DNA from: Candidatus Poriferihabitaceae bacterium
Lineage (GTDB): Bacteria > Pseudomonadota > Gammaproteobacteria > Arenicellales > Poriferihabitantaceae
Direction of reading: 5' to 3'
Length of the DNA stretch: 64,000 nt
Assembly (NCBI GenBank): GCA_965237485.1
Contig: CBDEFQ010000003.1
Location: forward strand, 6,554-70,553
Part shown: positions 3,364-63,253 of the stretch, one piece after another
Layout of the letters: each line of letters opens with the position of its first letter
Numbering within the stretch: the first letter of the stretch is position 1
The notes under the pieces: generated by a model
The model's input: the letters and a program-made list of their open reading frames with translations, nothing else
Databases searched by the model: none
What the model was told of the DNA's origin: nothing
Program-made: the position numbers and the translations under genes

Positions 3364-3450
3364 GCCGGGGTGGCGAAACTGGTAGACGCACTGGATTCAA
3401 AATCCAGTAGTAGAAATACTGTGCCGGTTCGATTCCGGCCCTCGGTACCA
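3364..3450 (+). tRNA. tRNA-Leu (anticodon CAA), CCA encoded
   Basis: GCCGGGGTGGCGAAACTGGTAGACGC... has anticodon stem CTGGA/TCCAG with loop TTCAAAA, a long variable arm, T-arm GCCGG-TTCGATT-CCGGC and acceptor 3' CCTCGGT-A-CCA. It closely parallels E. coli-type tRNA-Leu. The acceptor stem has G1-U72 and G5-U68 wobbles. Confidence 0.85.
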
Positions 3451-3603
3451 TATACCAGACAGTGTCTAACTCTTTAGAAACAACTAATCGTAAGACCACC
3501 AGTTTCACAATAATTGAAATTTTTCATGCGCGAACTTCATACCATTGATCTACACAACTCAGCTCCGTCTGGTCTAGAGATTAGGTGCCTAGCATATGTA
3601 TCA

Positions 3604-4997
3604 GAGTTATGCCTGAAAGTGGTGTATGGAGTAGTTGACTAAAAGCGGCGTATCGGGATGAGTTGAGTTTACAACAACTTAAACTTCCACAGACATACGC
3701 CACTATGAAACAGAATAAAATTATTTCCTTTGAAAAGCCAGAGCAAAGCATCGATCCGCTGCAAGAATTGATTCGCAATGGCGCTAGGCAACTCATTCAA
3801 ACCGCGGTCGAGAGTGAGTTATCTGAACTGCTGTATCGCAATTGTGACAAAGTCTCAGATTCAGGACACGCTGGTGTCGTTCGTAACGGCTATTTGCCAG
3901 AACGTGAACTGCAAACCGGGATCGGCCCAGTCAAAGTACGTATCCCCAAGGTGCGCTCCCGCACTGGAGTACCGATCACCTTTCGGTCTGCTTTAGTGCC
4001 GCCGTATGTGCGTAAAACGAGAACACTAGAAGCGGCCTTGCCTTGGCTGTATCTCAAGGGTGTCAGCACTGGAGAAATGGGGGATGCACTGAGCGTGCTA
4101 GTGGGTCAATCAGCGACTGGGTTATCATCAAGCACAGTGAGTAAGCTCAAAGCAACGTGGTCTCAGGAGTACAAGGATTGGAATAGAGAAGGTTTAGATC
4201 GAGATCGATGGGTTTATCTATGGGCGGACGGGATACACAGCGGCCTGCGCGGCGATGAGGGCCGGCTCTGTGCCTTAGTTGTCATCGGAGTGAATGAGCG
4301 CGGTCACAAGAAATTACTGGCGATTGAAGACGGTGAGCGAGAGTCTACGCAGAGTTGGCGAGAGGTGTTGTTGGCACTCAAGGAGCGAGGCCTGAATCAA
4401 CCAGAGCTGGGCATCGGTGATGGTGCTTTAGGCTTTTGGAATGCCCTGGAAGAAGTCTATCCTGGCACTAAACATCAACGGTGCCGGGTGCATAAAACGG
4501 CCAACGTGCTGAACAAGCTGCCTAAATCGGTGCAGCCCAAAGCAAAAGCAGCTCTGCATAACATTTGGCAGGAAGAAACCAAAGAAGCGGCGCAAAGCAC
4601 CTATCAATTATTCATTAAAACCTGTCAAGACAAGTATCCAAAAGCCACGCAGTGCTTGGAAAAAGATCGCGAAGAGTTAATGACGTTCTACTCGTTCCCT
4701 GCCAAGCACTGGATGAGCATAGGTACTACGAATCCAATTGAATCAACATTCGCGACTATCCGACACCGTACCAAACGATGCAAGGGATGTCTTAGCCGTG
4801 ATGGCATGTTAAGTATGATGTTCAAGCTGGGTCAGTGCGCAGAGAAAAAGTGGAACCGAATACGCGGGTTCGCCTATCTAGCAAAAGTGATTCAAGGGGT
4901 TCCATTTAAAGATGGAATAGAGCAAACTAATGACTACTCAGATCAAACCGAGGCCGCTTGAAGAAAATGCCTCATACACCAGATTCGGGCATAACTC
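3604..4997 (+). mobile_element. IS256-family element (IS256-a), copy 1, 1394 bp
   Basis: IRs GAGTTATGCCTGAAAGTGGTGTATG / revcomp GAGTTATGCCCGAATCTGGTGTATG. 9-bp direct repeat TATGTATCA at 3595-3603 and 4998-5006. It lies 153 bp downstream of tRNA-Leu. Confidence 0.9.
3663..4961 (+). CDS. IS256-family (Mutator-type) transposase
   Basis: 432-aa ORF; the true start is probably MKQNK at 3705. It carries family-typical blocks LYLKGVSTGEM, YLWADGI and QRCxVHKTANVLNKLPK. Confidence 0.9.
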   Translation: MSLQQLKLPQTYATMKQNKIISFEKPEQSIDPLQELIRNGARQLIQTAVESELSELLYRNCDKVSDSGHAGVVRNGYLPERELQTGIGPVKVRIPKVRSRTGVPITFRSALVPPYVRKTRTLEAALPWLYLKGVSTGEMGDALSVLVGQSATGLSSSTVSKLKATWSQEYKDWNREGLDRDRWVYLWADGIHSGLRGDEGRLCALVVIGVNERGHKKLLAIEDGERESTQSWREVLLALKERGLNQPELGIGDGALGFWNALEEVYPGTKHQRCRVHKTANVLNKLPKSVQPKAKAALHNIWQEETKEAAQSTYQLFIKTCQDKYPKATQCLEKDREELMTFYSFPAKHWMSIGTTNPIESTFATIRHRTKRCKGCLSRDGMLSMMFKLGQCAEKKWNRIRGFAYLAKVIQGVPFKDGIEQTNDYSDQTEAA

Positions 4998-5092
4998 TAT
5001 GTATCATTCCCGAGCCAGATTAGAAGTACACCAAACTTCAAGGCGCGATAATATTGATGATGACCTAGGCTTTCTTACACTCAAATTGTCCG

Positions 5093-16940: not shown

Positions 16941-18334
16941 GATACTGTAACTTCAGGTATGGACTTTTATATTAGATAGAGCAGTATTGCCTTTTCCCCC
17001 CTAAGGGGAATTTTTCCGAATTTTTGATTTATTCAAATTTTCTATCTTGGTGTCTTGTAAGTTGAACCATTTGTGCGTTCCCTGTTTTAAGCAATTAAAA
17101 TACTGGAGACACCCAAATGACCCAATCAAACAATAACGTATTTGACGTAATAGTGGAACACACATCTCAGAAGGCCCCGATGCCATGCGCCCCGTGCTCA
17201 CCGCACTGCTCAATGAGGCGATGAAGATTGAAAGAGAGCCGTTTCCAGGCGCATCACACTATGAGCATAGTCAAGACCGGCCAGGGTTTGCCCATGGCTA
17301 CCAGGATAAGCGTATCGATACGCAAGCCGGTACGCTCAATCTGCGTATCCCAAAGACCGCTCAACACGTTGATGAACCTTTTTACCCTCAATCGCCAGAA
17401 CGCGGCTTACGCAGCCAACGTGCGATGCTGCTGACCGTTGCTGAAATGTACGTGACGGGCGTTAGCACGCGCCGAGTCGAAAAAGTCATGCAGAGCATGG
17501 GTATTGAAAGCATCTCCTCTACACCGGTCTCACGGGCTAACCAGAGCATGGATGAGGCGTTAAAAGTCTGGCGTGATCGTCCTTTGGGTAAAGTCTCTTA
17601 CCTAATCCTTGATGCGCGTTATGAAAAGGTGCGTGAGGGCCACCAAGTGATTGATATGGCGGTGTTGAGTGCGGTGGGTGTATTGCCTTGTGGACGGCGT
17701 TGCGTATTAGGAACGGCAATGGCACTTAATGAAGCCGAGGTTAACTGGCGAGCGTTCCTCAAAGGCTTGGTTGACCGGGGCATACATGGTATTGAGTTTA
17801 TTGTCAGTGATGATCACAGTGGCTTAAAAGCCGCTAGAAAGGCAGTGTTCCCAGGTATACCTTGGCAGCGTTGCCAGTTTCATCTGGCGCAGAATGCAAT
17901 GCATCATGCCCCCAATCACAAGATCAAGCAGCGCATTGGTGGTGAGCTGCGTAGTGTTTGGAATGCACCCAATATGGCAGCTGCTCAGGTTAATCTAAAA
18001 GTCCTTGTGAGCCAGTACCAGGAAAAGCATGCTCACTGGGCGCAGTGGCTAGAAAACAATGTGCCTGAAGGGTTAAATGTGTTTGCCTTGCCAGATAGAC
18101 ACCAAAAGAAAATGCGAACCTCCAACCGCATTGAACGGACGGTTCAACAAGAACTTAAGCGGCGAACCCGCTTGGTCAGAGTCTTTCCTAACCGAGAGGC
18201 TTGGTTACGATTAGTCAGTGCCATTCTGATTGAAATTGACGACGAATGGGCTAATGCTAATCATCGATATATCGTGTGGAACGACAATGAGTCAACTTGC
18301 TAGACAAAAAGTCCATACCAAATGTTGCGTAATC
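16941..18334 (+). mobile_element. Second IS256-family element (IS256-b), 1394 bp
   Basis: 8-bp direct repeat TAAAAAAT at 16933-16940 and 18335-18342. Imperfect IRs share GGTATGGACTTTT. A 93-bp right-end relic of the same element lies at 45802-45894. Confidence 0.8.
17185..18303 (+). CDS. IS256-family transposase (N-terminus probably frameshifted)
   Basis: 372 aa (MYVTGVSTRRVEKV, ILDARYEKVRE, WQRCQFHLAQN). A likely true start, MTQSNNNVFD at 17117, is in another frame, which suggests a frameshift near 17170-17185. Confidence 0.75.
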   Translation: MRPVLTALLNEAMKIEREPFPGASHYEHSQDRPGFAHGYQDKRIDTQAGTLNLRIPKTAQHVDEPFYPQSPERGLRSQRAMLLTVAEMYVTGVSTRRVEKVMQSMGIESISSTPVSRANQSMDEALKVWRDRPLGKVSYLILDARYEKVREGHQVIDMAVLSAVGVLPCGRRCVLGTAMALNEAEVNWRAFLKGLVDRGIHGIEFIVSDDHSGLKAARKAVFPGIPWQRCQFHLAQNAMHHAPNHKIKQRIGGELRSVWNAPNMAAAQVNLKVLVSQYQEKHAHWAQWLENNVPEGLNVFALPDRHQKKMRTSNRIERTVQQELKRRTRLVRVFPNREAWLRLVSAILIEIDDEWANANHRYIVWNDNESTC

Positions 18335-19025: not shown

Positions 19026-19406
19026 TTAAATTAAAACTAATCACTTAATGCACTAGATAATAACTTAGAAGTCACGTCAACAACAGATACCACCTGTTCA
19101 TACGGCATGCGTGTCGGCCCAACCACGCCTAACACACCCACCCGCTGCCCTTCTTTTTCATAGGGCATCGCCACCACGGAACAAGCCTCTAGGGCTTCGT
19201 AGCCCGACTCTTCGCCTATATAAATACTGACTCCTTCTCCGTCTAGGCTTTTGCTTACTAAGTCTAATAGTACCCGCTTGGTGTGAAATGTATCGAGCAC
19301 TCCTTTTAATTGGGAATTATATACATAAATCCGTGAGGCAGATTCTAGCACCTGAGTCTGAATTGTGGTATAATAATCCGTATAGAAATTAACCGATAGA
19401 TTAAAC

Positions 19407-20333
19407 ATGAAAAAGAAGCCAGTCAAAACAATCAGCATATTAGATTTACTCAATATGTTTTCAACCGAAGAAAAGGCGGTTGAGTGGTTAGAATGTGTAC
19501 GCTGGGGTGAATCTCCTATCTGTGCTCATTGCGGCTGTGTTGAAAATATAAATGAAGCCAAAACAAAAAGGTTTACCTATTGGTGCTGTAATTGTCACAA
19601 GCAGTTTACAGTCAAAACAAATACAATCATGCACTCTTCAAAGTTGTCTATGCAAAAATGGGTGGTTGCTATATATTATCTTTTAACAGCTAGAAAAGGC
19701 ATATCAAGTATGCAGTTATCAAAAGAGTTAGGCATCACACAAAAGTCGGCGTGGTTCATGCTACAACGTATTCGTGAGTCTTGTAGTCAAGGTGACTTTA
19801 AGCTATCAAAAGTAGTTGAAGTTGATGAAACTTATATCGGTGGTAAAGAAAAAAACAAACACAGTAATAAGAAGCTAAACGGTGGGCGAGGCGCAGTGGG
19901 TAAAGCTGCTGTATTCGGTATGCGCGAAAGAGAAGGAAAAGTTAAAGCTATGGTAGTGACAACTACTACTAAGGAGTCGCTACAAGGAACGATTACCGAT
20001 AATGTAGAAAAAGGTTCAACAGTTTACACAGACGATCGTAGATCATATTTAGGATTACAAGGCTACGGTCACAGCACAGTCAATCATTCAGCTAAAGAAT
20101 ACGTCAATGGTATGGCTCACACTAATGGTATTGAGAGCGTTTGGGCAGTGCTTAAACGTGGTTATAATGGCGTTTATCACAACATGAGCGTTAAGCACTT
20201 GGGGCGTTATGTTAATGAGTTCACCTTTAGATTGAATGAAGGCAATGTAGGAATTGATACTATTGATCGGATGGCGGCATTGGGTAAGTCTGTAGGCAAT
20301 AAGAGATTAACCTATGCGGAGTTAATAAGATGA
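19407..20333 (+). CDS. IS1595-family (ISXO2-like) DDE transposase with N-terminal zinc ribbon
   Basis: 308 aa. Zinc ribbon CAHCG...CCNCH. Family-typical blocks VEVDETYIGG, VYTDDRRSY and HTNGIESVWAVLKRG. Confidence 0.85.
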   Translation: MKKKPVKTISILDLLNMFSTEEKAVEWLECVRWGESPICAHCGCVENINEAKTKRFTYWCCNCHKQFTVKTNTIMHSSKLSMQKWVVAIYYLLTARKGISSMQLSKELGITQKSAWFMLQRIRESCSQGDFKLSKVVEVDETYIGGKEKNKHSNKKLNGGRGAVGKAAVFGMREREGKVKAMVVTTTTKESLQGTITDNVEKGSTVYTDDRRSYLGLQGYGHSTVNHSAKEYVNGMAHTNGIESVWAVLKRGYNGVYHNMSVKHLGRYVNEFTFRLNEGNVGIDTIDRMAALGKSVGNKRLTYAELIR

Positions 20334-21277
20334 ACACTATATGTTTACAATCTCTAGCAACTATAAATAGAAATATTGCTTGGCGGAATAACCCTTCAAT
20401 ACCAAAATGGGTTGATATTGAAGAAGTTGGGCTTGACCAATTTTTCACGGCGCCCAAAATCGCCGAATATTGCCATCAGAGCATGATTTCAATTATGGGT
20501 AATGATGGGGCAAATGAGGATCACTACAAATTCATAGAGCCTTCTGCCGGGTCGTGTGTATTTCTTGATTTATTGCCAGAAGACCGAAGAATAGGAATAG
20601 ATATCATGCCGCTACGATCAGACGTGATTGAGCACGACTTTTTAGAATGGAGAATACAACCAAATTGCTTGAGTTACGCGACAATTGGAAACCCGCCTTT
20701 TGGGTATAGAGCATGGCTTGCTCTTGCATTTATGAACCATGCTGCAACTTTCTCGGATTATGTAGGTATGATATTGCCCATGGCGTTCCAGAGTGATGGA
20801 AAAGGTAGTCCAAAGCATCGAGTGAAAGGTTTACAGTTATTGCATTCAGAAACTTTGCCACAAGATAGCTTTACGGATTTCCATGGTAAATCCGTAAAGA
20901 TTAATGGACTTTGGCAAGTATGGAAGCGTGGCGTTAATAACAAACAGCCCGTTAAAAAATGCTCTGATTGGGTGGAGCTACTTACAGTAGACCAAAGGAA
21001 AGAGAGATTATGCGGTCATAACAGAATGAATGAGGCTGACTTCTTTTTACAAAGAACTTTCTACAAAGAGCCTCCAAAGCCCGTTAAATGCTTTTCTGAT
21101 GTGAAATATGTATGCGGTTATGGGATTGTAATAAAAAAATCCAAGGATAAGATAATAAAGCTTCTAAATGAAACTGACTGGCGGATGTATAGTAATCTAG
21201 CCGCCCATAACTGTAGGCATATTAGTATGTACCATATTGAAAAAGTATTAACAGACAATGGTTATTTAAATGATTAA
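20330..21277 (+). CDS. N6-adenine DNA methyltransferase (gamma-type motif order)
   Basis: 315 aa. The AdoMet motif FIEPSAGSCVF lies upstream of the catalytic motif IGNPPFG. Its ATGA start overlaps the transposase stop. Confidence 0.75.
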   Translation: MNTICLQSLATINRNIAWRNNPSIPKWVDIEEVGLDQFFTAPKIAEYCHQSMISIMGNDGANEDHYKFIEPSAGSCVFLDLLPEDRRIGIDIMPLRSDVIEHDFLEWRIQPNCLSYATIGNPPFGYRAWLALAFMNHAATFSDYVGMILPMAFQSDGKGSPKHRVKGLQLLHSETLPQDSFTDFHGKSVKINGLWQVWKRGVNNKQPVKKCSDWVELLTVDQRKERLCGHNRMNEADFFLQRTFYKEPPKPVKCFSDVKYVCGYGIVIKKSKDKIIKLLNETDWRMYSNLAAHNCRHISMYHIEKVLTDNGYLND

Positions 21278-21804
21278 CCCTAAAGAAATACTATTGGAAG
21301 TACTCAGCAATCATGGTGATGCAAACAAGTGGAATGAAGCCACTTTTGAGCATATAAAGCGGGTATCCAATACTAAAGTAGGTGAAGTTGGGCAAGACTT
21401 TGTTGAAAAGCTCTGTGCTGACCTTGGTTATGAGTGTATTTTCCCACTCAATAAAAAAAGGTGTTCGTGCAAAACAAAATCCTTGGGATATTCAGATCAA
21501 TGGTGTTCAACTTGAACTTAAGACAGCTACAGAAGATGTGAGCGGTTCGTTTCAATTCAATCACATTAAATATCATAGGCCGTATCATGGGGTTATGTGC
21601 ATAGGCGTTGCTCCACATGAAATATTTTTCAATGTCTGGTCGAAAGCAGATATTTCAACAGGCGCGGCAGGGACATTGGTATCAATGGAGAAAAATGCTA
21701 ATGCTAGTTATAAGCTAACTAAAAAGCCTAAAGGTCTACACCCTATTGACGATTTCGATAGGAAATTGAGAGTTTTTTTGGCTAGCTTTGTAAACCAAGA
21801 GTGA
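21270..21804 (+). pseudogene. PD-(D/E)xK-type restriction endonuclease candidate, frameshifted in an A7 tract
   Basis: Two overlapping ORFs (21270-21515 and 21382-21804) join if the A7 run at 21453-21459 loses one A: ...GYECIFPLNKKGVRAKQNPWDIQINGVQLELKTATED (a D-x9-ExK pattern). The start overlaps the methyltransferase stop by 8 nt. Confidence 0.6.
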
Positions 21805-22840
21805 GCAAGCTGCCCATGAAACAACCAACAAAAAAGCAGCTTGAGAAAGCAGTTAAAACCACTCTATTCAGCATCCCCGAAAAGAAGGCTGAATACCAGA
21901 ACAAGAAGCCGACCAAAGAGCAGCTAAATCAAAAATTTAAACTTGAGAAGCGCAGGTAATAAAACTGGCCCCACGGATTTATGTATATAATTCCCTTTTA
22001 ATTGATCGGTTTGCTCAAAGTCGGGTAAGTTGATCAACTGATCTTCACCACTGACTAAAACTTCAGAATGCTGCCCGTCTTTATCTTCAAGCAAACCTTG
22101 TGCCATCTCAACTGCGGTCTGCATAGCTTGGTGCATCGAGCTTGAGTCCATTTTCATTTTATCGAGTAAATCAAGGCGGACTTCCGACATTGATCTTCTA
22201 GCATAAGCGTCATTGAAATAATTTGCCGCTTGAACCAACTCAGAATCAGAGTAATCTTGTTCGACCTTAATCACTTTATTTTCTACCAAACCATCTTCGT
22301 AACCAATATAGCGAGGATTCGCTGATGGCTTAGGCGCAGAAACTCTATTTGCTTAAAATGGCTGTATTCGCTGTTGGGCATCGACACCACGCCCGCGAAT
22401 GACGTCAGCTTCGATAATATCTTTGATGCGTTTTAAATCAGTTCTTTAGGATCATTATATTGTCCCAACACTTGTTGAATTTGATTGCTGGCAGCGGCTT
22501 CAAGTGGCTGGCTGTTTAACATACTGTTGATGTAAACCCTATAACCTGCGCAAGTGGGAATACGCCCCGCTGAAGTATGCGGTGCGCGAATGAGTCCAAT
22601 CTGTTCCAAATCTGCCCTCACATTGCGCACCGTTGCTGAGCTCACTTGCAACTCCTGTGATTTTGCTAAGGTGGTTGAGCCAACCGGTGTGCCTGACTCA
22701 ACATAATGCCGAATCAATTGATTGAGCACGGTACCAGCACGATCAGAGATATTATTTAAGTTATCAACCAAAGTGTTCAATATACGCAGTTTGCTTTGAA
22801 GGTTATAATACCAAAGTGTCTAAGAATCTGCTTGCTCTGA

Positions 22841-26200: not shown

Positions 26201-26447
26201 CGTTAGCGTAGTGCTGTCGAATCAACCTTAGTCAATAACTTCGTAACCTTCTGAAAAAGTCACTCCAGCTAGGCTTCTCTACCGGTTCTTCTGCCATTCC
26301 TGGGGTTTCCGCTAAACGGCCTCCGCTTCTTCAGCTATTTCGACTTCTTCAATAACTTTCGCGTCAACAATTACTATCTCTTCTTCAAAACTAGCGGTAA
26401 AGGAAAACAGGCCGGAACCTATCCATATTCCAACATAATGATTCCTT

Positions 26448-27650
26448 GAGAGCGCAGCGTAACTCACGATTTTAGTTTGATATTTTCGAAGCACTCATTT
26501 TTTGAGCTATATTTGCCCAGTTTCGCGTATTCGATCATCATTTAGTCACTATTTTATCAATTCGAGCACCTAAGCCATATTAAAGGCACAACTATCCAGC
26601 ATAGTGCCAATCAGGCAAGCCATACAAGCTTAAGAACTTAGCACCTTTACGGATATTCGCTGCCATCGCCGCTAGGCCGTAAACAGTCTGGTTCTTCGCT
26701 AGCCCCATGAACCGAGTGCGAGCTAAACCATAATGCTGCTTGTAAGTCGCAAAGAGCCGTTCGCCACCTGCTCGCGTTACCGCAATAACTGCATTACGGG
26801 TACGGTCTGCATCTGACAACGGATTACCTCGATAGCCCTTGCGTTGAACCTGATCATCAATTCCAAGTTGCTCCAGTTTATCTCGCGTCTCCTCAGAACT
26901 ATACGCCGCATCAGCATATAGGGCAGTCTCATCGCCCAACAGCAATTCATCGCGCAGTTGGCTGTCATGAACATGCCCTGGCGTCACATTCTGGTGCTGA
27001 ACAAACCCATCCTCATCAACTCCCGTATGCACTGAGTAGCCATAGGTAGACTTCTTTCGACCTCGGCTGTCATTTTTGACATGCCAGCTCGCTTCAGGGT
27101 CTCGCTTAGGCGTCCCGTCTTTGCCGTTACCATTTCCAGAACGAGCCGCTTCTATAGGTGTTGCATCTATAATGTTGATGCGCCCCTTGCTCATAATAAC
27201 GTTCTTCGCTTCAAGTTGACGATTGATCTCACCTAGCAAGCGGTCCCACAGTTCGTGCTCCATTAACTGGTTACGAAAGCGCCCAAGGGTCGAAGCTTCA
27301 GGTACATCGCCGCCTAACTCAAAGCGGCAAAACTTACGAAACAATAAATCTCTAAATAAGCACTGTGCTAACTCCCTATCCGACAGTTCATACCAAATTC
27401 CCAGCATCAAGCTGCGGAACAAACTAAGTAATGGATAACTAGGGCGGCCAGTAGTGCCAGCATAAATAGATGAAAGCAGTGTCTCTATTTCGCTCCAATC
27501 TAATAGTGCTTCTGTATCATCAAGACTATGCAGAATTGGATGATCCAAATCTGATCTTGATACTAATAAATCTCGTTGGGTGGCGAATGGTTTTTGCATG
27601 CCTAATTTTAACAAATTATGTAGATACTCGATGAGTTATGCTGCACTCTC
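26448..27650 (-). mobile_element. IS5-family element (IS5-a), copy A, 1203 bp
   Basis: IRs GAGAGTGCAGCATAACTCATCGAG / GAGAGCGCAGCGTAACTCACGATT. Direct repeat TCCTT at 26443-26447 and 27651-27655. Two further copies lie at 44334-45536 and 56031-57233. Confidence 0.9.
26592..27614 (-). CDS. IS5-family transposase
   Basis: 340 aa with an InsH-like N-terminal region (LSLFRSLMLGIWYELSDRELA) and a DDE core (IIDATPIEA, YADAAYSS). Confidence 0.9.
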   Translation of the reverse strand: MLKLGMQKPFATQRDLLVSRSDLDHPILHSLDDTEALLDWSEIETLLSSIYAGTTGRPSYPLLSLFRSLMLGIWYELSDRELAQCLFRDLLFRKFCRFELGGDVPEASTLGRFRNQLMEHELWDRLLGEINRQLEAKNVIMSKGRINIIDATPIEAARSGNGNGKDGTPKRDPEASWHVKNDSRGRKKSTYGYSVHTGVDEDGFVQHQNVTPGHVHDSQLRDELLLGDETALYADAAYSSEETRDKLEQLGIDDQVQRKGYRGNPLSDADRTRNAVIAVTRAGGERLFATYKQHYGLARTRFMGLAKNQTVYGLAAMAANIRKGAKFLSLYGLPDWHYAG

Positions 27651-36630: not shown

Positions 36631-37199
36631 GAAGTTACCGATGCAGCTTTCAAAATAAAGCTATTTTGCTCCTACTTAGCTATGAATAAAGTAACATCTA
36701 ATTTAATAACAACATAATTGGCGCAATAGGAATTTTTGAAGCCGTTGGATTGGAAATAAAAGACATTTGCATATTGCTGTAGTTATTGTTGCCAGGAAAA
36801 ATAAACAAAGCCCCTTCGGTTAAAGTCATCGGATTTCCGGTTGCCTTAGTTGGATAGTGATTTTCCGACTTAATGTCGCCATTACATTCGTTGCAAATCA
36901 TCTCCAACTTCCAGTTAGTGGTACCCTCCGGCACTCCTAGAGTGTATGTCCAACTCGTAGAGCCCGCTTGGGGATAAATATAATGGGTGTAACTATCCAA
37001 ACTTAAAAAATAAGTTGAACTAGCCCTTAATACAACTTGCTCATTGCCACTAGCGGAAAAGTCAGATGGAAATTTAATCGCCCCAGAAAAAACATCTGCT
37101 GTCTCGAGCTGTGAAGTGGACCCCATGATTAGGACAGGTTGAAGGCCAAAATAAGGAGTTATTTTCTGTTTTATAATTGTTCAAAACGAGGAACAGAAA

Positions 37200-37481
37200 A
37201 TGAGTAAAAAGCGTAGAAACCATGCCCCACCATTCAAAGCCAAAGTTGCTCTTGCAGCAATCAAAGGTGATGAAACATTAAGCAATCTTGCTAGTCGTTA
37301 TGACATCAATGCAAATCTTATCGTCAAGTGGAAGAAACAATTGCTCGATAGCTCAGCTGAAGTCTTTGCATCAGGCACAGGCTTATCTCCAAACCGAGAA
37401 TCAGAGATTAAATCATTACAGGCAAAGATCGGTGAAATCACCATGGGAAACGATTTTTTATCAAAAGCGCTCGGTCGTTAA
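37200..37481 (+). CDS. IS3-family transposase OrfA
   Basis: 93 aa, near-identical to ORF 1193-1474. Confidence 0.85.
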   Translation: MSKKRRNHAPPFKAKVALAAIKGDETLSNLASRYDINANLIVKWKKQLLDSSAEVFASGTGLSPNRESEIKSLQAKIGEITMGNDFLSKALGR

Positions 37482-37501
37482 ACAGACCTGAGCGCAAAAC
37501 T

Positions 37502-38326
37502 ATGATTAATAAAAGCAATAAACTATCGTTAGTTCGTCAGTGTAAATTGTTGAAGATTCATCGTTCCCATGTTTATTACAAAACCTCACCTGCTAATGAG
37601 GATGACTTGGAACTGATGCATCTGATTGATCGCATTCACCTCAATCGGCCCTTTCTTGGCAGTAGACGCATTCGTGATGTGTTGCAAGATGTAGGCCACC
37701 GAGTTGACCGTAAACATGTGCGACGCTTAATGCGTAAGATGGGCATTAAAGCCATCTATCCTAGGCCTAACACCAGCAAGAAGAAGGCGGGGCACAAGAT
37801 TTATCCTTATCTGCTAGGTGGGTTGGCCATCAATCAACCCAATCAAGCTTGGTGTACCGATATAACTTATATCCCGATGCCTAAGGGCTTTGCTTATCTT
37901 ACCGTTGTGATGGATTGGTATTCTCGTAAAGTGCTGTCATGGCGGCTTAGCAACAGCATGGATAGCGCATTCTGCGTAGATGCTTTGGAAGAGGCACTGC
38001 ATTACTACGGCAAGCCTGATATCTTTAACAGCGATCAAGGTGCGCAATTTACCAGTGAGGCGTTTACCGGTGTACTCAAAGACAATGGTATTCGCATCAG
38101 CATGGATGGCAAAGGTGCTTGGCGTGACAATGTATTTGTTGAGCGCTTATGGCGCAGCGTGAAATATGAGGAAGTCTATTTGCAAGCCTACCAATCGATG
38201 AAAGAGGCAAAAGACGGCATTGGCTCCTGGATAAACTATTACAACCAAGAGCGTAAACATCAAACATTGGGCATGGTCCCTGACATGATGTATGATCCAT
38301 GTCGCGGCCTGAAATTGGCTGCTTAA
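37502..38326 (+). CDS. IS3-family transposase OrfB
   Basis: 274 aa, identical to ORF 1495-2319. Confidence 0.9.
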   Translation: MINKSNKLSLVRQCKLLKIHRSHVYYKTSPANEDDLELMHLIDRIHLNRPFLGSRRIRDVLQDVGHRVDRKHVRRLMRKMGIKAIYPRPNTSKKKAGHKIYPYLLGGLAINQPNQAWCTDITYIPMPKGFAYLTVVMDWYSRKVLSWRLSNSMDSAFCVDALEEALHYYGKPDIFNSDQGAQFTSEAFTGVLKDNGIRISMDGKGAWRDNVFVERLWRSVKYEEVYLQAYQSMKEAKDGIGSWINYYNQERKHQTLGMVPDMMYDPCRGLKLAA

Positions 38327-38378
38327 TCAGCTGAAAATAACTCCTAAGCCATCTGTCCTAAAAAGCGGGTCCACTTCT

Positions 38379-41817: not shown

Positions 41818-42008
41818 CAATCATTCAAATGATTGCCCGCTATTCCCTTTAGTTAGCAAGACACAAATTCCGCCTTACGTTTAAGCCAGTAGTGTTGAAC
41901 AGCGTGCAAAAATGAACAGTTTCGTGGGTGATCAGCGTACAAAACTGAACACCTTTATTGTTAACTGTCTCGGAGCCATTAATCCGAGGAAACTGTCAGG
42001 TGATTTGT

Positions 42009-43507
42009 ATGCCTATATGTACCAAGATACGACGTTTGTGTTTAGTAGAAGGTCGCAAAGTAAGCGAGGTGTCGCGTGAATTCAATTTATCACGCACCAC
42101 TATTTATAAATATTTAAACAACGCGCCAAGCGAACCTGAATATCAGCGGTCGGTGCCAATAGTCTGTCCGAAGCTGGATAAGTTCAAACCTCAGTTGATC
42201 AATTTGCTTGAAGTGGACGCAGCTCGCTCAGTGCGAGAAAGACGTAATGCAGTTCAACTGTATGAAGAGATTGAGTTGCAAGGGTATCGAGGGGCTTATG
42301 ACAGCGTTCAACGGTCTGTCAAAGCGTGGAAGGATCACTCGCGGTCATGTATTAAACAAGCATTTGTGCCATTGGTTTTTGCACCAGGTGAAGCCTGTCG
42401 TTTGATTGGTCACATGAACAAGTCATTCTGGGTGGGTTTGGTGTCAAGATCAAACTAGCCCACTTTCGTTTATGTCATTCGCGTAAATCATATCTTAGGG
42501 CCTATCCCAGAGAAACACAGGAGAGGGTGTTTGATGCACATATTCGGGCGTTTGATTTCTTTGAGGGCTTACCTCAGAAGATGATATACGATCACCCTAA
42601 GACCATAGTCAGTGCATTGTTTAAGGGTAAGCGGCGTGAGTTTAATCGCCGCTTTCTAAGCCGGATGAATCATTATCTGATTGAACCGATTGCCTGTACA
42701 CCGGCAGCGGGTTGGGAGAAAGGCCAGGTTGAACGTCAGGTCGGTGTTATGCGCCAAAGGCTGTTTGTTCCACGGGTGCGCTTTGCTGATTTAGATGAAT
42801 TAAACCAATGGCTGGAGCAACGTTGTGCTCGACTTGGTGAACGCCCACACCCGACTGACAAATCAAGATTAATTGATGAAGTGTTTGCCGAGGAGCAGCC
42901 GAGCTTACGTCCCGCGATGGTAGCCTTTGATGGATATTATGAGCGTTTGGCGCGTGTGCATAAAACCTGTGTGGTGCACTACGACCGCAATCAATACTCC
43001 GTACCCTGTCGGTATGTTGGCCAAGCTGTTTCTGTTAGAGCCTATGCAGATAGGATTAAAGTCGTGGTTGACGATGTGGAAGTGACTTCACATGCTCGCT
43101 GTTTCGGTCGTCATCAAATGATCTTTGATCCTTGGCATTATCTGCCCGTACTGGAGATTAAACCTGGCGCATTACGCAATGGCGCACCGTTTGTTGATTG
43201 GGATTTACCCAAGGCACTGCTAACACTCAAAAAACAGTACCTCAAACGTGATGGCGGTGACCGAGAGTTTGTACCATTGTTACTATTGATTCACCAGCAT
43301 GGCTTGGAAACAGTCACGGTGGCCTGTGAGCGGGCATTAGATGCCAATACGACTCAGCTATCAGTCATTACCAATTTGGTGCATCGGTTAACGGAACCTG
43401 ATTCGGCCCAAGTGATGACAATTACCAATGCGCCTGTATTAGCTGTCCCCTCGGCAGCGAACGTGACCCGCTATGACCCGCTGTGCGCGGAGGTGAGCCA
43501 TGCTTGA
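42009..43507 (+). pseudogene. istA: IS21-family transposase IstA, frameshifted
   Basis: One base is missing near 42399 relative to copy 2 (CCTGTCGTTTGATTGG against CCTGTCAGTTTGATTGG). This splits the gene into ORFs 41958-42458 and 42527-43507. Confidence 0.85.
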
Positions 43508-44252: not shown

Positions 44253-44333
44253 CATCGCAAGAAAGCAGGATTGATTCATCAACTCAAGTTTCGCTACGCT
44301 TCACTTGAGTTGATGATAAAGAAATATTATTGT

Positions 44334-45536
44334 GAGAGTGCAGCATAACTCATCGAGTATCTACATAATTTGTTAAAATTAGGCATGCAAAAACCATTCG
44401 CCACCCAACGAGATTTATTAGTATCAAGATCAGATTTGGATCATCCAATTCTGCATAGTCTTGATGATACAGAAGTGCTATTAGATTGGAGCGAAATAGA
44501 GACACTGCTTTCATCTATTTATGCTGGCACTACTGGCCGCCCTAGTTATCCATTACTTAGTTTGTTCCGCAGCTTGATGCTGGGAATTTGGTATGAACTG
44601 TCGGATAGGGAGTTAGCACAGTGCTTATTTAGAGATTTATTGTTTCGTAAGTTTTGCCGCTTTGAGTTAGGCGGCGATGTACCTGAAGCTTCGACCCTTG
44701 GGCGCTTTCGTAACCAGTTAATGGAGCACGAACTGTGGGATCGCTTGCTAGGTGAGATCAATCGTCAACTTGAAGCGAAGAACATTATTATGAGCAAGGG
44801 GCGCATCAACATTATAGATGCAACACCTATAGAAGCGGCTCGTTCTGGAAATGGTAACGGCAAAGACGGGACGCCTAAGCGAGACCCTGAAGCGAGCTGG
44901 CATGTCAAAAATGACAGCCGAGGTCGAAAGAAGTCTACCTATGGCTACTCAGTGCATACGGGAGTTGATGAGGATGGGTTTGTTCAGCGCCAGAATGTGA
45001 CGCCAGGGCATGTTCATGACAGCCAACTGCGCGATGAATTGCTGTTGGGCGATGAGACTGCCCTATATGCTGATGCGGCGTATAGTTCTGAGGAGACGCG
45101 AGATAAACTGGAGCAACTTGGAATTGATGATCAGGTTCAACGCAAGGGCTATCGAGGTAATCCGTTGTCAGATGCAGACCGTACCCGTAATGCAGTTATT
45201 GCGGTAACGCGAGCAGGTGGCGAACGGCTCTTTGCGACTTACAAGCAGCATTATGGTTTAGCTCGCACTCGGTTCATGGGGCTAGCGAAGAACCAGACTG
45301 TTTACGGCCTAGCGGCGATGGCAGCGAATATCCGTAAAGGTGCTAAGTTCTTAAGCTTGTATGGCTTGCCTGATTGGCACTATGCTGGATAGTTGTGCCT
45401 TTAATATGGCTTAGGTGCTCGAATTGATAAAATAGTGACTAAATGATGATCGAATACGCGAAACTGGGCAAATATAGCTCAAAAAATGAGTGCTTCGAAA
45501 ATATCAAACTAAAATCGTGAGTTACGCTGCGCTCTC
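44334..45536 (+). mobile_element. IS5-a, copy B, nested in the right arm of IS21-b
   Basis: Same IRs as copy A. Direct repeat ATTGT at 44329-44333 and 45537-45541. Confidence 0.9.
44370..45392 (+). CDS. IS5-family transposase
   Basis: 340 aa, differing from ORF 26592-27614 at a few residues. Confidence 0.9.
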   Translation: MLKLGMQKPFATQRDLLVSRSDLDHPILHSLDDTEVLLDWSEIETLLSSIYAGTTGRPSYPLLSLFRSLMLGIWYELSDRELAQCLFRDLLFRKFCRFELGGDVPEASTLGRFRNQLMEHELWDRLLGEINRQLEAKNIIMSKGRINIIDATPIEAARSGNGNGKDGTPKRDPEASWHVKNDSRGRKKSTYGYSVHTGVDEDGFVQRQNVTPGHVHDSQLRDELLLGDETALYADAAYSSEETRDKLEQLGIDDQVQRKGYRGNPLSDADRTRNAVIAVTRAGGERLFATYKQHYGLARTRFMGLAKNQTVYGLAAMAANIRKGAKFLSLYGLPDWHYAG

Positions 45537-45605
45537 ATTGTATTTAATTGTTCAGTTTTACTCGCTGACAGGTGTCCAGTTTTAAACGCTGATTGACACT
45601 TTAAA

Positions 45606-50415: not shown

Positions 50416-50745
50416 ATGACATTTGGCGGGTTAAACTCAATGTGGGTAATTGTATTATTCGATTTGCCTACAGACACCAAAAAAGCTCGCCAACAATACA
50501 CGCGATTTCGCAAAAAACTGCTTGATGACGGCTTTGGGATGATGCAATATTCAATATACATGCGTCACAGTTCAAGCGAAGAAAACGCGCAAGTTCACAT
50601 AAAACGTGTCAAAACCACATTACCTGATGATGGTGAAGTAAGAATTATCAAAATCACCGACAAACAATTTGCCAAGATCCAGGTTTATTATGGAAAAAAA
50701 CGTCTGCCAACAGAAAAAACACCCAACCAACTTGAGCTTTTATAA
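50416..50745 (+). CDS. cas2: CRISPR-associated endoribonuclease Cas2 (type II)
   Basis: 109 aa, ...MWVIVLFDLPTDTKKARQQYTRFRKKLLDDGFGMMQYSIYMRH... Confidence 0.9.
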   Translation: MTFGGLNSMWVIVLFDLPTDTKKARQQYTRFRKKLLDDGFGMMQYSIYMRHSSSEENAQVHIKRVKTTLPDDGEVRIIKITDKQFAKIQVYYGKKRLPTEKTPNQLELL

Positions 50746-50796
50746 GGCGCAAGTTGGTTTGTTTCTATTTGATAATCAAGGCTTTACGTGCGAGAT

Positions 50797-51616
50797 AGTA
50801 TAACCGACCAAGGCCTATCCGCAAATCACAACATAACGTCATTACATTGCAGTAATGCATTCAGTATAACCGACCAAGGCCTATCCGCAAATCACAACAG
50901 CGTTATTACCTTTGCAAGTTTTGGTTCAGTATAACCGACCAAGGCCTATCCGCAAATCACAACAGTACATCTTTTATGTCGCTGTAGAGGCTAGTATAAC
51001 CGACCAAGGCCTATCCGCAAATCACAACATACTCGATCATCGGTGATGTGGCCGAATCAGTATAACCGACCAAGGCCTATCCGCAAATCACAACAAGTAA
51101 TCTGACGTTAGTCGTCGTTCCAGAAGTATAACCGACCAAGGCCTATCCGCAAATCACAACTGAAGTCGTAGTGGTATTCGGCGGGTTTAAAGTATAACCG
51201 ACCAAGGCCTATCCGCAAATCACAACTAGTTCTCTAGTACCTGTTTTGTATTGGCTAGTATAACCGACCAAGGCCTATCCGCAAATCACAACTACAGAAG
51301 GCGGAACAACTGATGAAACAACAGTATAACCGACCAAGGCCTATCCGCAAATCACAACTAAGGTCCGTGTAGCGTTTATTCGCTTCATAGTATAACCGAC
51401 CAAGGCCTATCCGCAAATCACAACTAGATTGAACTAATCTAATCAATAACTTCCAGTATAACCGACCAAGGCCTATCCGCAAATCACAACAGTTATTATT
51501 ACTATAGTCGCTTAGAGGGTAGTATAACCGACCAAGGCCTATCCGCAAATCACAACTATTTAGATTATGTTGAGAGGTTAAAAATGAGTATAACCGACCA
51601 AGGCCTATCCGCAAAT
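50797..51616 (-). CRISPR. CRISPR array: 12 full 36-bp repeats plus one 30-bp truncated repeat, 12 spacers of 29-30 bp
   Basis: Plus-strand repeat AGTATAACCGACCAAGGCCTATCCGCAAATCACAAC. Inferred functional orientation GTTGTGATTTGCGGATAGGCCTTGGTCGGTTATACT. Repeat starts: 50797, 50863, 50928, 50993, 51059, 51125, 51191, 51257, 51323, 51389, 51455, 51521 and 51587 (truncated at 51616). Confidence 0.97.
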
Positions 51617-53032
51617 AGCTTTAAAGGGGTCTGACAGTCTTGTCCAACATGAAATGATACTGAGCGAAGGGACTGATTCTAATCGGAAATGATACCGAAC
51701 TAATCTAATTTCTGTTCATGATGGTGAATGAATACCATTATGAATGACCACCATATAGATACCCTTGATAAGGCGCGCTTGTTTCTACAAGGCACTGATG
51801 AAATCGATCTGGCAATCGACGGTAAACGCAATCGCTATGATTTCATCAAACGCACCTTAATGCGTTTCAAATACAGCAAACTGGGTCGAGCCGATAAGGG
51901 TCTTGTGCTGCGTTATATCACACGCATCAGCGGTTACTGCATATTTTTACCAACCGTGGCCAGTTAATTTTACGTAGCGAGGCCACCTAATTTTACCAAC
52001 CGTGGCCACTGATTTTTATCGAAGCGCGGACACTTTTTCGCTTCCGTAAAATTCCTCCACAGCCTTCTTGCGGTTAACACTATAACCGTTAACCTGCCGT
52101 TCTTTTATTTGTATTGGAACAGCTATGAAACCCAAGAAGGTCACTATGTTAAAACTCAAAGACATTCTGCGCTTGCACTATGAGGCGCAACTATCCTCCC
52201 GTAAAATCGCGCTCAGCTTAAACCTGTCACGCAGCGCCGTATCCAAATATCTCGTCAGAGCAACAAATGCCCAATTAAGCTGGCCCCTGCCAGCAGGCAT
52301 GGATGAACAACAGCTGCAGGCGATATTAAAGCCGCCCAAATGCAGAGGCCCTGCCACTGCTTTATTGTGTGAGCCAGACTTTGCACAAATATCAGTTGAA
52401 CGGTCTCGTAAAGGGATGACTCGCCAATTACTGTGGGAAGAATACGCCGAGCATCATCCAGTCAACCATTACAGCTATTCTCGCTTCACGGTGTTGTTCG
52501 GTCAGTGGCGCAAGAAGCAAAGAATCTCGATGCGCCAGACTCATATTGCTGGAGATAAACTGTTTGTTGATTATGCTGGTTTAACCTTAGGTATTATTGA
52601 TGCTCGTACGGGTGAAGCACGCCCTGCCCAAGTATTCGTTTCAGTGCTCGGAGTCAGTTCCTATACCTACGCCGAGGCCACATGGACACAGAGCTTGCCT
52701 GACTGGATAGGCTCACACGTTCGCGCCTTTGAATTTTATGGCGGTGTTACTCAAACAGTGGTGCCCGATAACCTCAAGAGTGCTGTTTCTAAAGCCGGTC
52801 GTTATGACCCCGAACTCAACCCCAGCTATGCACAATTAGCCGCCTATTACGGTGTGGCGGTGATGCCTGCCAGACCTTATAAGCCTAAGGATAAATCTAA
52901 AGCCGAGGTGGGCGTACAGATTGTCGAACGCTGGATCATGATGCGGCTGCGCAAGCTGCAATTGTTTAGTTTGGATGAGGCTAATCAAGCTATTCGAGGA
53001 TTGCTAGATGATCTAAACAATCGCCCCTTTAA

Positions 53033-54792: not shown

Positions 54793-56030
54793 CCACTTTA
54801 CGTTAAAATCACTTGACCGTTTGAAGGCTTGGTGCAAGTGGCCACGCTTCGTAAAATTCGGTGGCCACGGTTGTAAAAATACGCAGTTACTCTTATGTGC
54901 AAGTGAAACGCCTGGCTGCCAGCTATCTCAAGCACGGTAGAATCCAGTGGCGACATCGTGCCACAAGGGGCTTTGCTAGACGCTATAGCAATCAAGACAT
55001 TAAGCTTCTAGCAGAGATGGATGAACTCCACGGTACGTTATCAGGCCATGCCACTAAGAAACTCTGTGAGCGCGCCTTGGTTGTCTATGAGCAAACTGAG
55101 TATGCCAACCTGGCACGTATCTCGGTTTCTCATCTATACAATCTACGCCGATCTAAACCCTACCAGAACAATCGCCGTCACTTTGAAAAGACACATTCCA
55201 AGCCTTCTTCTATCGGCCAAAGACGTAAGCCACAGCCAGAAGGTCAACCTGGCTATAGCCGTGTAGATACAGTGCATCAGGGCGATAAGGACAAGGTTAA
55301 AGGGGTCTATCATATCAACGCCGTTGATGAGATCACCCCGTTTGAAGTCGTGTCTTCTACACAGAAAATATCAGAGCCATTCTTGATGCCTATTCTCACT
55401 CAAATGCTAGAGCAATTCCCCTTTGCGATTAAAGGCTTTCATGCCGATAATGGCAGTGAATACATTAACCAATCGGTGGTGCGATTGTTGAATAAGCTAT
55501 TAATCGAGTTGACCCAATCCAGGGCTAGACACCGTAACGACCATGCCTTAGTTGAGTGCAACAATGGGGCCATCGTGCGCAAGCATCTTGGCTTCATGCA
55601 TATCCCGCAAAAATATGCGCCTGAGATTAATCAATTTGCCACCGACTTTCTTAACCCTTATTTGAATTATCACCGACCTTGTTTCTTCCCACAGATCAGC
55701 ACTAACAACAAAGGAAAACAAGTCAAAACCTATCCATATCGAAACATGATGACGCCTTATGAAAAACTCAAATCGTTGACCAATGCACAGTCATATCTTA
55801 AAACTCACATCTCGTTTACAATGCTTGACGATATCGTTTATCAGATGACTGATAATGAGGCAGCAAAACAACTCAATGAGGAAAAAACTAAACTCTTTAA
55901 AAACATCTTTGAACAGAAATGACAATCAACTTCTCGGTATCATTCCTGTATTGGAATAGACTCTCGAAGCTGAGTTTCATTATATTTCGCAGATCGATAG
56001 TAATCTAAATTAGATTCATATTTCTTTATT

Positions 56031-57233
56031 GAGAGTGCAGCATAACTCATCGAGTATCTACATAATTTGTTAAAATTAGGCATGCAAAAACCATTCGCCA
56101 CCCAACGAGATTTATTAGTATCAAGATCAGATTTGGATCATCCAATTCTGCATGGTCTTGATGATACAGAAGCACTATTAGATTGGAGCGAAATAGAGAC
56201 ACTGCTTTCATCTATTTATGCTGGCACTACTGGCCGCCCTAGTTATCCATTACTTAGTTTGTTCCGCAGCTTGATGCTGGGAATTTGGTATGAACTGTCG
56301 GATAGGGAGTTAGCACAGTGCTTATTTAGAGATTTATTGTTTCGTAAGTTTTGCCGCTTTGAGTTAGGCGGCGATGTACCTGAAGCTTCGACCCTTGGGC
56401 GCTTTCGTAACCAGTTAATGGAGCACGAACTGTGGGATCGCTTGCTAGGTGAGATCAATCGTCAACTTGAAGCGAAGAACATTATTATGAGCAAGGGGCG
56501 CATCAACATTATAGATGCAACACCTATAGAAGCGGCTCGTTCTGGAAATGGTAACGGCAAAGATGGGACGCCTAAGCGAGACCCTGAAGCGAGCTGGCAT
56601 GTCAAAAATGACAGCCGAGGTCGAAAGAAGTCTACCTATGGCTACTCAGTGCATACGGGAGTTGATGAGGATGGGTTTGTTCAGCGCCAGAATGTGACGC
56701 CAGGGCATGTTCATGACAGCCAACTGCGCGATGAATTGCTGTTGGGCGATGAGACTGCCCTATATGCTGATGCGGCGTATAGTTCTGAGGAGACGCGAGA
56801 TAAACTGGAGCAACTTGGAATTGATGATCAGGTTCAACGCAAGGGCTATCGAGGTAATCCGTTGTCAGATGCAGACCGTACCCGTAATGCAGTTATTGCG
56901 GTAACGCGAGCAGGTGGCGAACGGCTCTTTGCGACTTACAAGCAGCATTATGGTTTAGCTCGCACTCGGTTCATGGGGCTAGCGAAGAACCAGACTGTTT
57001 ACGGCCTAGCGGCGATGGCAGCGAATATCCGTAAAGGTGCTAAGTTCTTAAGCTTGTATGGCTTGCCTGATTGGCACTATGCTGGATAGTTGTGCCTTTA
57101 ATATGGCTTAGGTGCTCGAATTGATAAAATAGTGACTAAATGATGATCGAATACGCGAAACTGGGCAAATATAGCTCAAAAAATGAGTGCTTCGAAAATA
57201 TCAAACTAAAATCGTGAGTTACGCTGCGCTCTC
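56031..57233 (+). mobile_element. IS5-a, copy C
   Basis: Same IRs as the other copies. Direct repeat TATT at 56027-56030 and 57234-57237. Confidence 0.9.
56067..57089 (+). CDS. IS5-family transposase
   Basis: 340 aa, near-identical to the other two copies. Confidence 0.9.
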   Translation: MLKLGMQKPFATQRDLLVSRSDLDHPILHGLDDTEALLDWSEIETLLSSIYAGTTGRPSYPLLSLFRSLMLGIWYELSDRELAQCLFRDLLFRKFCRFELGGDVPEASTLGRFRNQLMEHELWDRLLGEINRQLEAKNIIMSKGRINIIDATPIEAARSGNGNGKDGTPKRDPEASWHVKNDSRGRKKSTYGYSVHTGVDEDGFVQRQNVTPGHVHDSQLRDELLLGDETALYADAAYSSEETRDKLEQLGIDDQVQRKGYRGNPLSDADRTRNAVIAVTRAGGERLFATYKQHYGLARTRFMGLAKNQTVYGLAAMAANIRKGAKFLSLYGLPDWHYAG

Positions 57234-62815: not shown

Positions 62816-63253
62816 TGAATAAGCCTTACGTTTATGATGGTTTCCATTCTAGCAAGATTCGCACAAACTTCCAATAAGATTCCAATAAACTTCGCATCTT
62901 ATAGTGCATCCAAGGGCATGCCTTGGTCGAGATTGAGCGTCGAAACGCTCACGGCATCCAATCCGCGTAGGGTTGGTCATGATTAAACTGTGGCCAGTTT
63001 ACGGTATCCAAACGGCGGACGGTTGGTGCATGGTTCAGCCCAGATGGAGAGGTATATCTCCAAGGTCTGGTCGATGGGGTTTGGGGTAGCGCGAAGGCTC
63101 CCCAATGGTGATAGAACAACCACTTGTTCGCTGGTGCAGCACCCAACTCGATGTTGGTAATGCGCCACTAAGCTCTTGCCCGAGAATGATAATTCGAGGC
63201 TTAGAGCGTCCCCGCAGGATAGAACGGACATGGAATGTCCTTCTCAAGATAGG

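Follow-up and report, generated by a model that had tools for sequence, protein, structure and literature searches.

Transporter insertion sequences (tIS) are an established category of insertion sequence (IS), with representatives in the IS1595 and IS66 families (TnCentral preprint, ISsaga paper), and within IS1595 tIS with passenger genes are reported for the ISNwi1/ISPna2 subgroups (Siguier, Gagnevin & Chandler 2009, as summarised in these two sources). Restriction-modification (R-M) units with long terminal inverted repeats (TIRs) and 8-bp target-site duplications (TSDs) have also been reported (Furuta, Abe & Kobayashi 2010, PMC2853133), namely a Type IIP unit in X. oryzae and a Type IIG unit with a transposase-motif open reading frame (ORF) in N. 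gonorrhoeae, and that study lists the IS1595 paper with other accounts of IS elements flanking R-M genes or solitary modification (M) genes. Here we describe an element of 2,684 bp in a 64,000-nt stretch of DNA from a Candidatus Poriferihabitaceae bacterium (contig CBDEFQ010000003.1; this whole stretch is called the window below), in which a transposase gene (tnp) is followed, between the same pair of TIRs, by a predicted methyltransferase gene (ORF2), a predicted restriction endonuclease gene (ORF3) and a small gene for a basic protein (ORF4). The best explanation of the whole, to which we assign a probability of roughly 85%, is an IS1595-family tIS with a Type II R-M cargo that has inserted into hrcA.

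The boundaries of the element can be read directly from the sequence (window 19312-21995). The left copy of the TSD, TTTTAATT (8 bp, 19304-19311), is matched exactly by the right copy at 21996-22003, and the left TIR, GGGAATTATATACATAAATCCGTG (24 bp, 19312-19335, plus strand), has its perfect reverse complement (24/24 bp) in the right TIR at 21972-21995 (minus strand). With up to 3 mismatches allowed, the TIR has only 2 matches in the 64 kb, where shuffled sequences lead one to expect 0, and the same 24-mer also terminates the related elements L001, L088 (1 mismatch) and L098, to which we return below. The element is poorer in GC than the window (38.9% versus 44.8%). Both of its flanks are hrcA sequence on the minus strand, recognised on each side by Pfam PF01628: the 3' part (19037-19303) encodes the HrcA C-terminal domain (profile positions 150-215, E=1.5e-20), and the 5' part (22004-22780) encodes the winged-helix domain and HrcA profile positions 20-143, with PF03444 and PF01628 matching on three separate frame pieces. 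When the element and one TSD copy were excised in silico, a continuous HrcA frame ran over the junction ...FEQTDQLKGVLDTFHTK.... An initial annotation of this DNA, made from the letters and their ORFs, had claimed a 2,684-bp element with 24-bp perfect TIRs and an 8-bp TSD, inserted in hrcA and holding three tightly coupled ORFs plus one of 47 codons; we reproduced the span, the repeats, the target, all ORF coordinates and the ATGA and 8-nt overlaps that couple the ORFs.

The disrupted gene bears further lesions. Three-frame translation of 22004-22780 revealed an extra in-frame stop after ...DPKELI and a change of frame at ...ILVT/EDGLVENK, the latter due to a 1-nt deletion (ACGGAAGATGG to ACGAAGATGG), and both lesions lie outside any homopolymer run. 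The hrcA gene is a pseudogene that has been hit several times, by the IS insertion, a nonsense codon and a deletion, and since the nonsense codon and the deletion are independent of the IS, real gene decay is plausible in this genome. Without the HrcA repressor, chaperones would be expected to be expressed constitutively.

The transposase (Tnp) is intact (19407-20333, plus strand, 308 aa) and matches the full profile (1-153) of Pfam PF12762, the ISXO2-like DDE domain (E=6.7e-42), as well as NCBIfam NF033547 (E=1e-58, 198.5 bits against a cutoff of 75). It has an N-terminal zinc ribbon of the form CxxC...CxxC (C39, C42, C60, C63), for which PF12760 scored 22.5 bits, slightly below its cutoff of 25.4, while close relatives have a precomputed PF12760 match. 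D140, D209, E243 and K250 are invariant in an alignment of 44 transposases, as are C39, C42 and C63; from general knowledge of DDE enzymes, we take D140, D209 and E243 to be the catalytic triad, with K250 placed seven residues after the glutamate. The ends (GGGAATTAT...) and the DDE and K residues presumably also fit the end consensus ggnnatTAT and the DDEK signature listed by ISfinder for the ISNwi1 subgroup. The Tnp has a ratio of nonsynonymous to synonymous substitution rates (dN/dS) of 0.05 versus that of L098, and 8-bp TSDs were found at 17 further insertion sites of related elements. The mean A+T content of seventeen TSDs is 88%. The features of IS1595 membership are present together: the DDE domain, the zinc ribbon, the DDE and K residues, short TIRs and an 8-bp TSD. 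The claim of an IS1595-family zinc-ribbon DDE transposase is borne out by the two profile matches and the CxxC pairs, and the use of the 8-bp duplication as a trait of this family by its recurrence in the insertions of relatives. A different IS1595-family transposase, P0321 (61% identical), occurs on four contigs, including a 1.44-Mb contig with a second ORF2 (see below), so that the host probably has more than one IS1595 lineage.

ORF2 (20330-21277, plus strand, 315 aa) begins with an ATG that overlaps the tnp stop codon as ATGA. It contains FIEPSAGSCVF as motif I and GNPPFG as motif IV and is matched over residues 35-309 by the PADLOC model MTase_II PDLC03280 (E=2e-62). Across its family P71, G74, F78, D103 and N121-P-P-F124 are invariant and D91 is present in at least 90% of sequences. 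An AlphaFold2 (AF2) model with a predicted local distance difference test (pLDDT) score of 91 has the fold of class-I S-adenosylmethionine-dependent methyltransferases, and its Foldseek neighbours are amino-methyltransferases: KsgA, the NPPF-motif proteins PH1948 and Ta1320, and the type IIG enzyme BpuSI. Phage relatives share ~33% identity over residues 35-208 (207 phage records), and most of the 15 such records listed are annotated as 'putative DNA N6-adenine methyltransferase'. Like that of ORF3, the ORF2 family is large and tightly conserved; it comprises more than 2,300 clusters, none with a Pfam domain, and the source names returned were all 'hypothetical protein'. On the profile match and the modelled fold, ORF2 is probably a Type II DNA methyltransferase, and probably of the N6-adenine type that the initial annotation had proposed. 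In the C-terminal domain (residues ~225-300), presumed to serve in target recognition, C228, C262, H293, C295 and H297 are invariant or near-invariant, and this Cys/His cluster (motif HNCRHISMYH) may be a metal site.

ORF3 (21270-21804, plus strand) overlaps the end of ORF2 by 8 nt and, once a frameshift is repaired, would encode a PD-(D/E)XK Type II restriction endonuclease of 177 aa. Its intact orthologue P0122 matches the PADLOC REase_II models PDLC03515/03498 (E ~4e-8), and the AF2 model of this orthologue (pLDDT 91.5) has a PD-(D/E)XK fold whose best Foldseek neighbours are NhoI, I-Ssp6803I, Eco15I, DpnI, NaeI and EcoRV. D73 and K84 do not vary among 61 aligned sequences, of which at least 90% also keep E46 and E82; the window copy has all four, and in the model they are placed on the helix-strand-strand elements expected for a PD-(D/E)XK active site. 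As with ORF2, none of the 445 clusters in the family has a Pfam domain and the source names returned were all 'hypothetical protein'. Taken on profiles, conserved residues and models, the interpretation of ORF2-ORF3 as a Type II R-M pair is well supported.

Several results weigh against the explanation of the whole given above. The endonuclease gene is broken in the window copy by a +1 frameshift, so restriction function is not claimable for that copy. Neither ORF2 nor ORF3 gave a significant match in Pfam, NCBIfam, PDB phmmer or PDB profile searches; the Foldseek matches reach only the level of fold class (template-modelling scores 0.3-0.55), and the top neighbours of the methyltransferase are RNA enzymes. 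Among the 80 genome loci found with the ORF2 profile, 61 show no trace of a transposase or of TIRs, and a generic promoter and terminator scan did not rise above chance.

The frameshift splits ORF3 over two frames (21270-21515 and 21382-21804) and stems from one extra A in an A7 run (21453-21459, plus strand), where L001 has A6 and L088 has A5. The initial claim of a PD-(D/E)XK-like endonuclease stood, by fold and by the PADLOC match of the orthologue, with the qualification that the gene is frameshifted in the window copy. ORF3 is intact in relatives such as L001, L088 and L016-18. The repaired gene has a dN/dS of 0.06-0.12, so that constraint is not relaxed, and as the catalytic residues are kept as well, the lesion should be either recent or an artefact, an assembly error being possible. 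If the extra A were an error of sequencing or assembly, the window would hold a fully functional mobile R-M system, and a single additional A within a homopolymer, in a gene that otherwise retains its constraint and all its catalytic residues, is what such an error would leave behind. We consider this unlikely, albeit the strongest of the alternatives: two other A7 runs in the same element, in tnp and in ORF2, stay in frame; the nonsense codon and deletion of the adjoining hrcA testify that real decay occurs here; and an identical frameshift product is found on a second contig, which a systematic error could mimic. More precisely, the exact ORF2 protein of the window and the exact 124-aa product of the frameshifted ORF3 appear in the records of two contigs, of which the longer measures 1.44 Mb, whereas the flanking host genes recN and nadK are recorded on one 76.8-kb contig only. 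This suggests that there is a second copy of the element that shares the lesion and probably belongs to the same genome. With its nuclease gene frameshifted, the system in the window copy is at best methylase-only.

The proposal that ORF2-ORF3 is not an R-M system at all, and instead constitutes some other two-gene selfish or defence module (for instance, a methyltransferase of RNA or protein together with a toxin-like nuclease, or an unrelated methylase next to a nuclease that depends on methylation), appears improbable to us. It draws on structural comparison, which places ORF2 nearest to rRNA adenine methyltransferases (KsgA) and to putative RNA methyltransferases with the NPPF motif, on the methylation-directed character of NhoI, Eco15I and DpnI among the top neighbours of ORF3 (as judged from entry titles and general knowledge), and on the failure of general family libraries to name either protein. 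Yet PADLOC Type II models match ORF2 nearly end to end and match ORF3 too, the phage relatives are annotated as DNA N6-adenine methyltransferases, and the corresponding slot of sister elements holds textbook R-M pairs (PF01555 with EcoO109I, C5 with NgoBV, and PF01555 with a His-Me restriction enzyme).

The element is mobile as a unit, with its cargo aboard. L001, a 2,729-bp contig assembled from another sample, has all four genes (81% nucleotide identity), the identical 24-bp TIRs and a TSD of its own (AAAAATTA), and a third close copy, L088, is flanked by AATATTTT. Diverged versions whose Tnp is 46-58% identical occur in metagenome-assembled genomes (MAGs) of Gammaproteobacteria and Chloroflexota, keep the order Tnp-ORF2-ORF3 between GGGAAYTATATA... 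ends and have TSDs of their own (L017, TTTCATTA; L018, TTTCAAAA; L068, AATCAAAT). One Rhizobiaceae MAG holds three copies that are 99.8-100% identical over ~2.6 kb, one with the TSD TTTTACAA and the other two with reciprocally swapped flanks (TTTGTCAG / GTATTTTG), which we interpret as the trace left by two insertions and a later recombination of the copies with each other. Moreover, several assembly contigs both start and end at or near the TIRs, exactly so in L063 and nearly so in L001 and L016. That the R-M genes are not the cargo of one element, lying instead by chance between separate IS ends or within an immobile composite, has next to no probability left and is already contradicted: while the window contains a single copy and a search of Joint Genome Institute (JGI) metagenome contigs with the exact TIR gave no match, this gene order recurs between matching TIRs in eight or more diverged elements whose 8-bp TSDs differ, three near-identical copies sit at different sites in one MAG, several contigs are bounded at or near the TIRs, and each element has one transposase gene. 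What defines a tIS was found here, that is, a Tnp-M-R(-ORF4) unit between TIRs at different sites and in different hosts. The initial annotation had argued that enclosure within the TIRs makes the R-M system itself transposable, and had staked this on the recurrence of the TIR/TSD pair and on homology of the cargo; the same gene order recurs between TIRs with independent 8-bp TSDs in other copies, and both cargo ORFs match methyltransferase or endonuclease profiles.

The cargo pair also has a life outside the IS. ORF3 lies directly downstream of ORF2 in 74 of the 80 loci, and a transposase or its relic lies directly upstream of ORF2, always on the same strand, in 19 of them; these upstream transposases grade from full length via truncated forms to short relics. 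For the 64 loci that gave no transposase hit, the characteristic ends were not found either. Given the 61 loci with no transposase or TIR trace, the IS is one vehicle among several, another being, for example, the prophage-like L002. In that locus (a 46.6-kb contig) ORF2 has another downstream partner and lies in a region with an integrase and a terminase nearby and no transposase. If the IS had captured the pair once, the IS-borne ORF2 copies might form a single clade; this was rejected, as they are scattered through the ORF2 tree. The divergences of Tnp and ORF2 co-vary (Spearman 0.55). The scatter fits ancient carriage with repeated loss of the transposase, and repeated capture of ORF2-ORF3 by the IS is possible. 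We therefore regard ORF2-ORF3, on this phylogenetic pattern, as an autonomous module that has apparently long been carried by the IS and has often outlived its transposase.

Hosts of ORF2 include Alpha- and Gammaproteobacteria, Acidimicrobiia, Chloroflexota, Poribacteria, Latescibacterota, Vicinamibacteria, Longimicrobiales, Spirochaeta and Sulfurovum, at a protein identity of 56-73%, and this spread suggests that the IS probably contributes to movement of the R-M pair between phyla. Many of the hosts are sponge- or coral-associated MAGs, judging from the record titles; R-M systems and transposases have been reported to be enriched in sponge microbiomes (PMC5099237). Two further arrangements were seen among the loci. 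In L089-L097, from many samples, a variant unit of truncated Tnp, ORF2, ORF3 and a 209-aa ORF adjoins a T5orf172/MUG113 gene. In L036 (2786-5737) a transposase fragment, ORF2 and a partial ORF3 lie between inverted repeats of 325 and 180 bp, with more matching flanks, so that the unit looks like an insertion in, or a capture by, another repeated element.

Related IS backbones carry other cargoes. A transposase search uncovered L098, which has the identical 24-bp TIR within a 30-bp perfect inverted repeat, a Tnp 81% identical to that of the window element, its own TSD (TATAATAG) and a homologue of ORF4. Its cargo consists of a PF01555 (SPPY-motif) methyltransferase and a nuclease of the His-Me/Endonuclease-VII type, which matches another PADLOC Type II restriction enzyme model (E=4e-49). 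The window element and L098 are homologous over element positions 1-1023, up to the tnp stop, and again over 2517-2684, with homology resuming 12 nt into ORF4 and unrelated R-M cassettes in between; in both, the methylase ATG overlaps the tnp stop as ATGA. The slot would accordingly begin, from this alignment, at the tnp stop codon and, in the sub-lineage of the window element, appears to end at ORF4. Multi-copy relatives of 1,608 bp (L100-L104, with the element at 3408-5015 of each locus) seem at first sight to lack cargo; they keep ORF4, however, and have, in the spacer between tnp and ORF4, the decayed C-terminal fragment of a MunI-type restriction enzyme (E=4e-24 after an internal stop is changed to W). 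The alternative that the 395-bp spacer of L100 is the remnant of an MT-A70-type methylase ('...IIYADPP*') was rejected, as Pfam gives the MunI fragment. The flanks of L103 do not match each other, nor do those of L104, which points to recombination among the copies.

More distant metagenome relatives (Tnp 39-57% identical), about 20 of which could be delimited, range from bare ISs of 1.0-1.2 kb up to elements of 4.2 kb. Five of those delimited carry DNA methyltransferases: a PF01555 enzyme with an EcoO109I-type enzyme, a C5 enzyme with an NgoBV-type enzyme, a partial C5 enzyme, a PF01555 enzyme with a 97-aa ORF, and a PF01555-Mrr fusion beside a Panacea-domain antitoxin. Others carry SieB, KilA-N or Replic_Relax genes, and nine have ORFs that matched neither Pfam nor PADLOC. 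The lineage as a whole has carried at least six R-M types: NPPF-methyltransferase/PD-(D/E)XK, PF01555/His-Me, PF01555/EcoO109I, C5/NgoBV, the PF01555-Mrr fusion with its Panacea antitoxin, and the MunI relic. All four genes of the element evolve under purifying selection, with dN/dS values of 0.05-0.11. A tentative generalisation, and one that we hold with well under even confidence, is that this IS1595 sub-lineage (GGGAAYTATATAC... ends, A/T-rich 8-bp targets) might be a dedicated shuttle for R-M and other anti-phage genes, exchanging unrelated cassettes at a fixed slot, and may be one of the main ways in which identical R-M systems arrive in nine or more phyla, in particular in sponge-associated symbionts.

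ORF4 (21816-21959, plus strand, 47 aa) encodes a conserved basic protein recognised by no family library. Its homologues in TIR-bounded elements are basic proteins of 46-55 aa with the core ...KPTKEQLNQKFKLEK..., and they accompany the same cargo in L001, L088, L016-18, L063 and L068, a different R-M cargo in L098 and a decayed one in L100. ORF4 was not found after any of the 64 ORF2(-ORF3) loci without a transposase and is confined to TIR-bounded elements; in six pairs its dN/dS of 0.05-0.11 indicates purifying selection. Membership in the R-M cassette was rejected, because ORF4 is present beside the unrelated cargo of L098 and never follows the stand-alone pairs, and so was its universality among tIS with ORF2-ORF3, because the L051-type variant is devoid of it, as are the more distant L119/L127-type elements. 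Judging from this distribution, ORF4 is a gene of the IS backbone and not of the cargo, and it may act as a novel accessory factor in transposition or in the control of the cargo. The 47-codon ORF that had been noted before the right TIR is thus present, as a conserved backbone gene and not as an appendix of the cargo.

A working model of the element can be assembled from these comparisons. The zinc-ribbon DDE transposase would recognise the 24-bp ends and insert the entire element (2.7 kb) at A/T-rich sites, where 8 bp become duplicated. The slot between the tnp stop and ORF4 would hold M, probably an N6-adenine enzyme, followed by the small PD-(D/E)XK enzyme (R), and as the genes overlap, first by ATGA and then by 8 nt, they probably form one operon with M before R. 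The operon may be read from a putative promoter in the left end, where an extended -10-like element, TGgTATAAT (19366-19374, plus strand), lies 32 nt upstream of the tnp ATG; GGTATAATAATCCGTA is kept in the window element, L001, L088 and L098, whatever the cargo. With translational coupling of M and then R, DNA of a new host would be methylated before restriction sets in. The IS moves the R-M pair within genomes and probably contributes to its spread between phyla, and the window copy, with Tnp and methylase intact and the nuclease recently frameshifted, would represent a mobile methylase with a dead nuclease. A benefit to the IS through addiction or defence is conceivable by analogy with general R-M biology; post-segregational killing and co-transcription of the pair with tnp, both put forward in the initial annotation, are likewise inferred. 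The heptamer AATCCGT occurs twice in the left end, within the TIR (19327-19333) and directly after the -10 element (19375-19381); the repeat is kept in L001, L088 and L098, perhaps as a sub-terminal binding site of the transposase.

Elsewhere in the window other mobile DNA abounds, and the host genome appears to be IS-laden and decaying. There are three IS3-type (rve) copies (1105-2371, 37112-38378 and 57701-58823), three IS5/IS4-type copies (DDE_Tnp_1 and DUF772) of more than 99% identity (26447-27650, 44333-45548 and 56030-57248), and IS256/Mutator-type copies at 3604-4997, at 57287-57700 with 60596-61578, and at 17185-18303. A segment with a helix-turn-helix ORF is repeated (41892-42638 equals 63253-64000). 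The largest ORF-free gap of the window (50745-52125) contains a self-similar block (50787-51616; 75-81% identity at offsets that are multiples of ~66 bp), suggesting a tandem repeat array.

R-M systems are known to move horizontally and yet the vehicle is rarely identified; here it is explicit, an intact multi-copy IS. Interchangeable cassettes provide a testable model for how R-M systems hop within and between genomes, the dead R on a still-mobile element a model for the origin of solitary methylases, and the cargo as such a model for how an IS could become more stable, or of use to its host, through what it carries. Such elements may also help to explain why, as reported, sponge microbiomes are enriched in both R-M systems and transposases.

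The surprise at R-M genes inside IS1595 TIRs that the initial annotation conveyed is smaller in the light of earlier work, as both concepts, the tIS and the R-M unit between inverted repeats, had already been described, even though the cargo itself is as it had stated. Like IS1595 tIS, the element has a single zinc-ribbon DDE transposase, short TIRs, an 8-bp duplication and genes without a role in transposition inside the TIRs; what may set it apart from those described is a fixed slot that has held six or more unrelated R-M cassettes in the lineage, together with the backbone gene ORF4. With the units of PMC2853133 it shares R-M genes within inverted repeats and the 8-bp duplication, and the Neisseria unit likewise has a transposase-motif ORF. 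Those units, however, are single cases with no intact transposase, whose mover the authors could not name, whereas the present element has an intact transposase of an identified family, multiple copies at multiple sites and a different R-M family. The cargo resembles pairs of small gamma-type N6-adenine Type II methyltransferases and PD-(D/E)XK Type IIP endonucleases in having motif I before motif IV (NPPF), a C-terminal putative target-recognition domain, an overlapping small PD-(D/E)XK nuclease downstream and matches to the PADLOC profiles over their full length, and differs from them in that neither protein belongs to a Pfam or NCBIfam family or has a solved structure. Possibly new in comparison with all of these systems are the swapping of R-M cassettes at a single slot throughout the lineage, ORF4, and a function for two large families of 'hypothetical' proteins.

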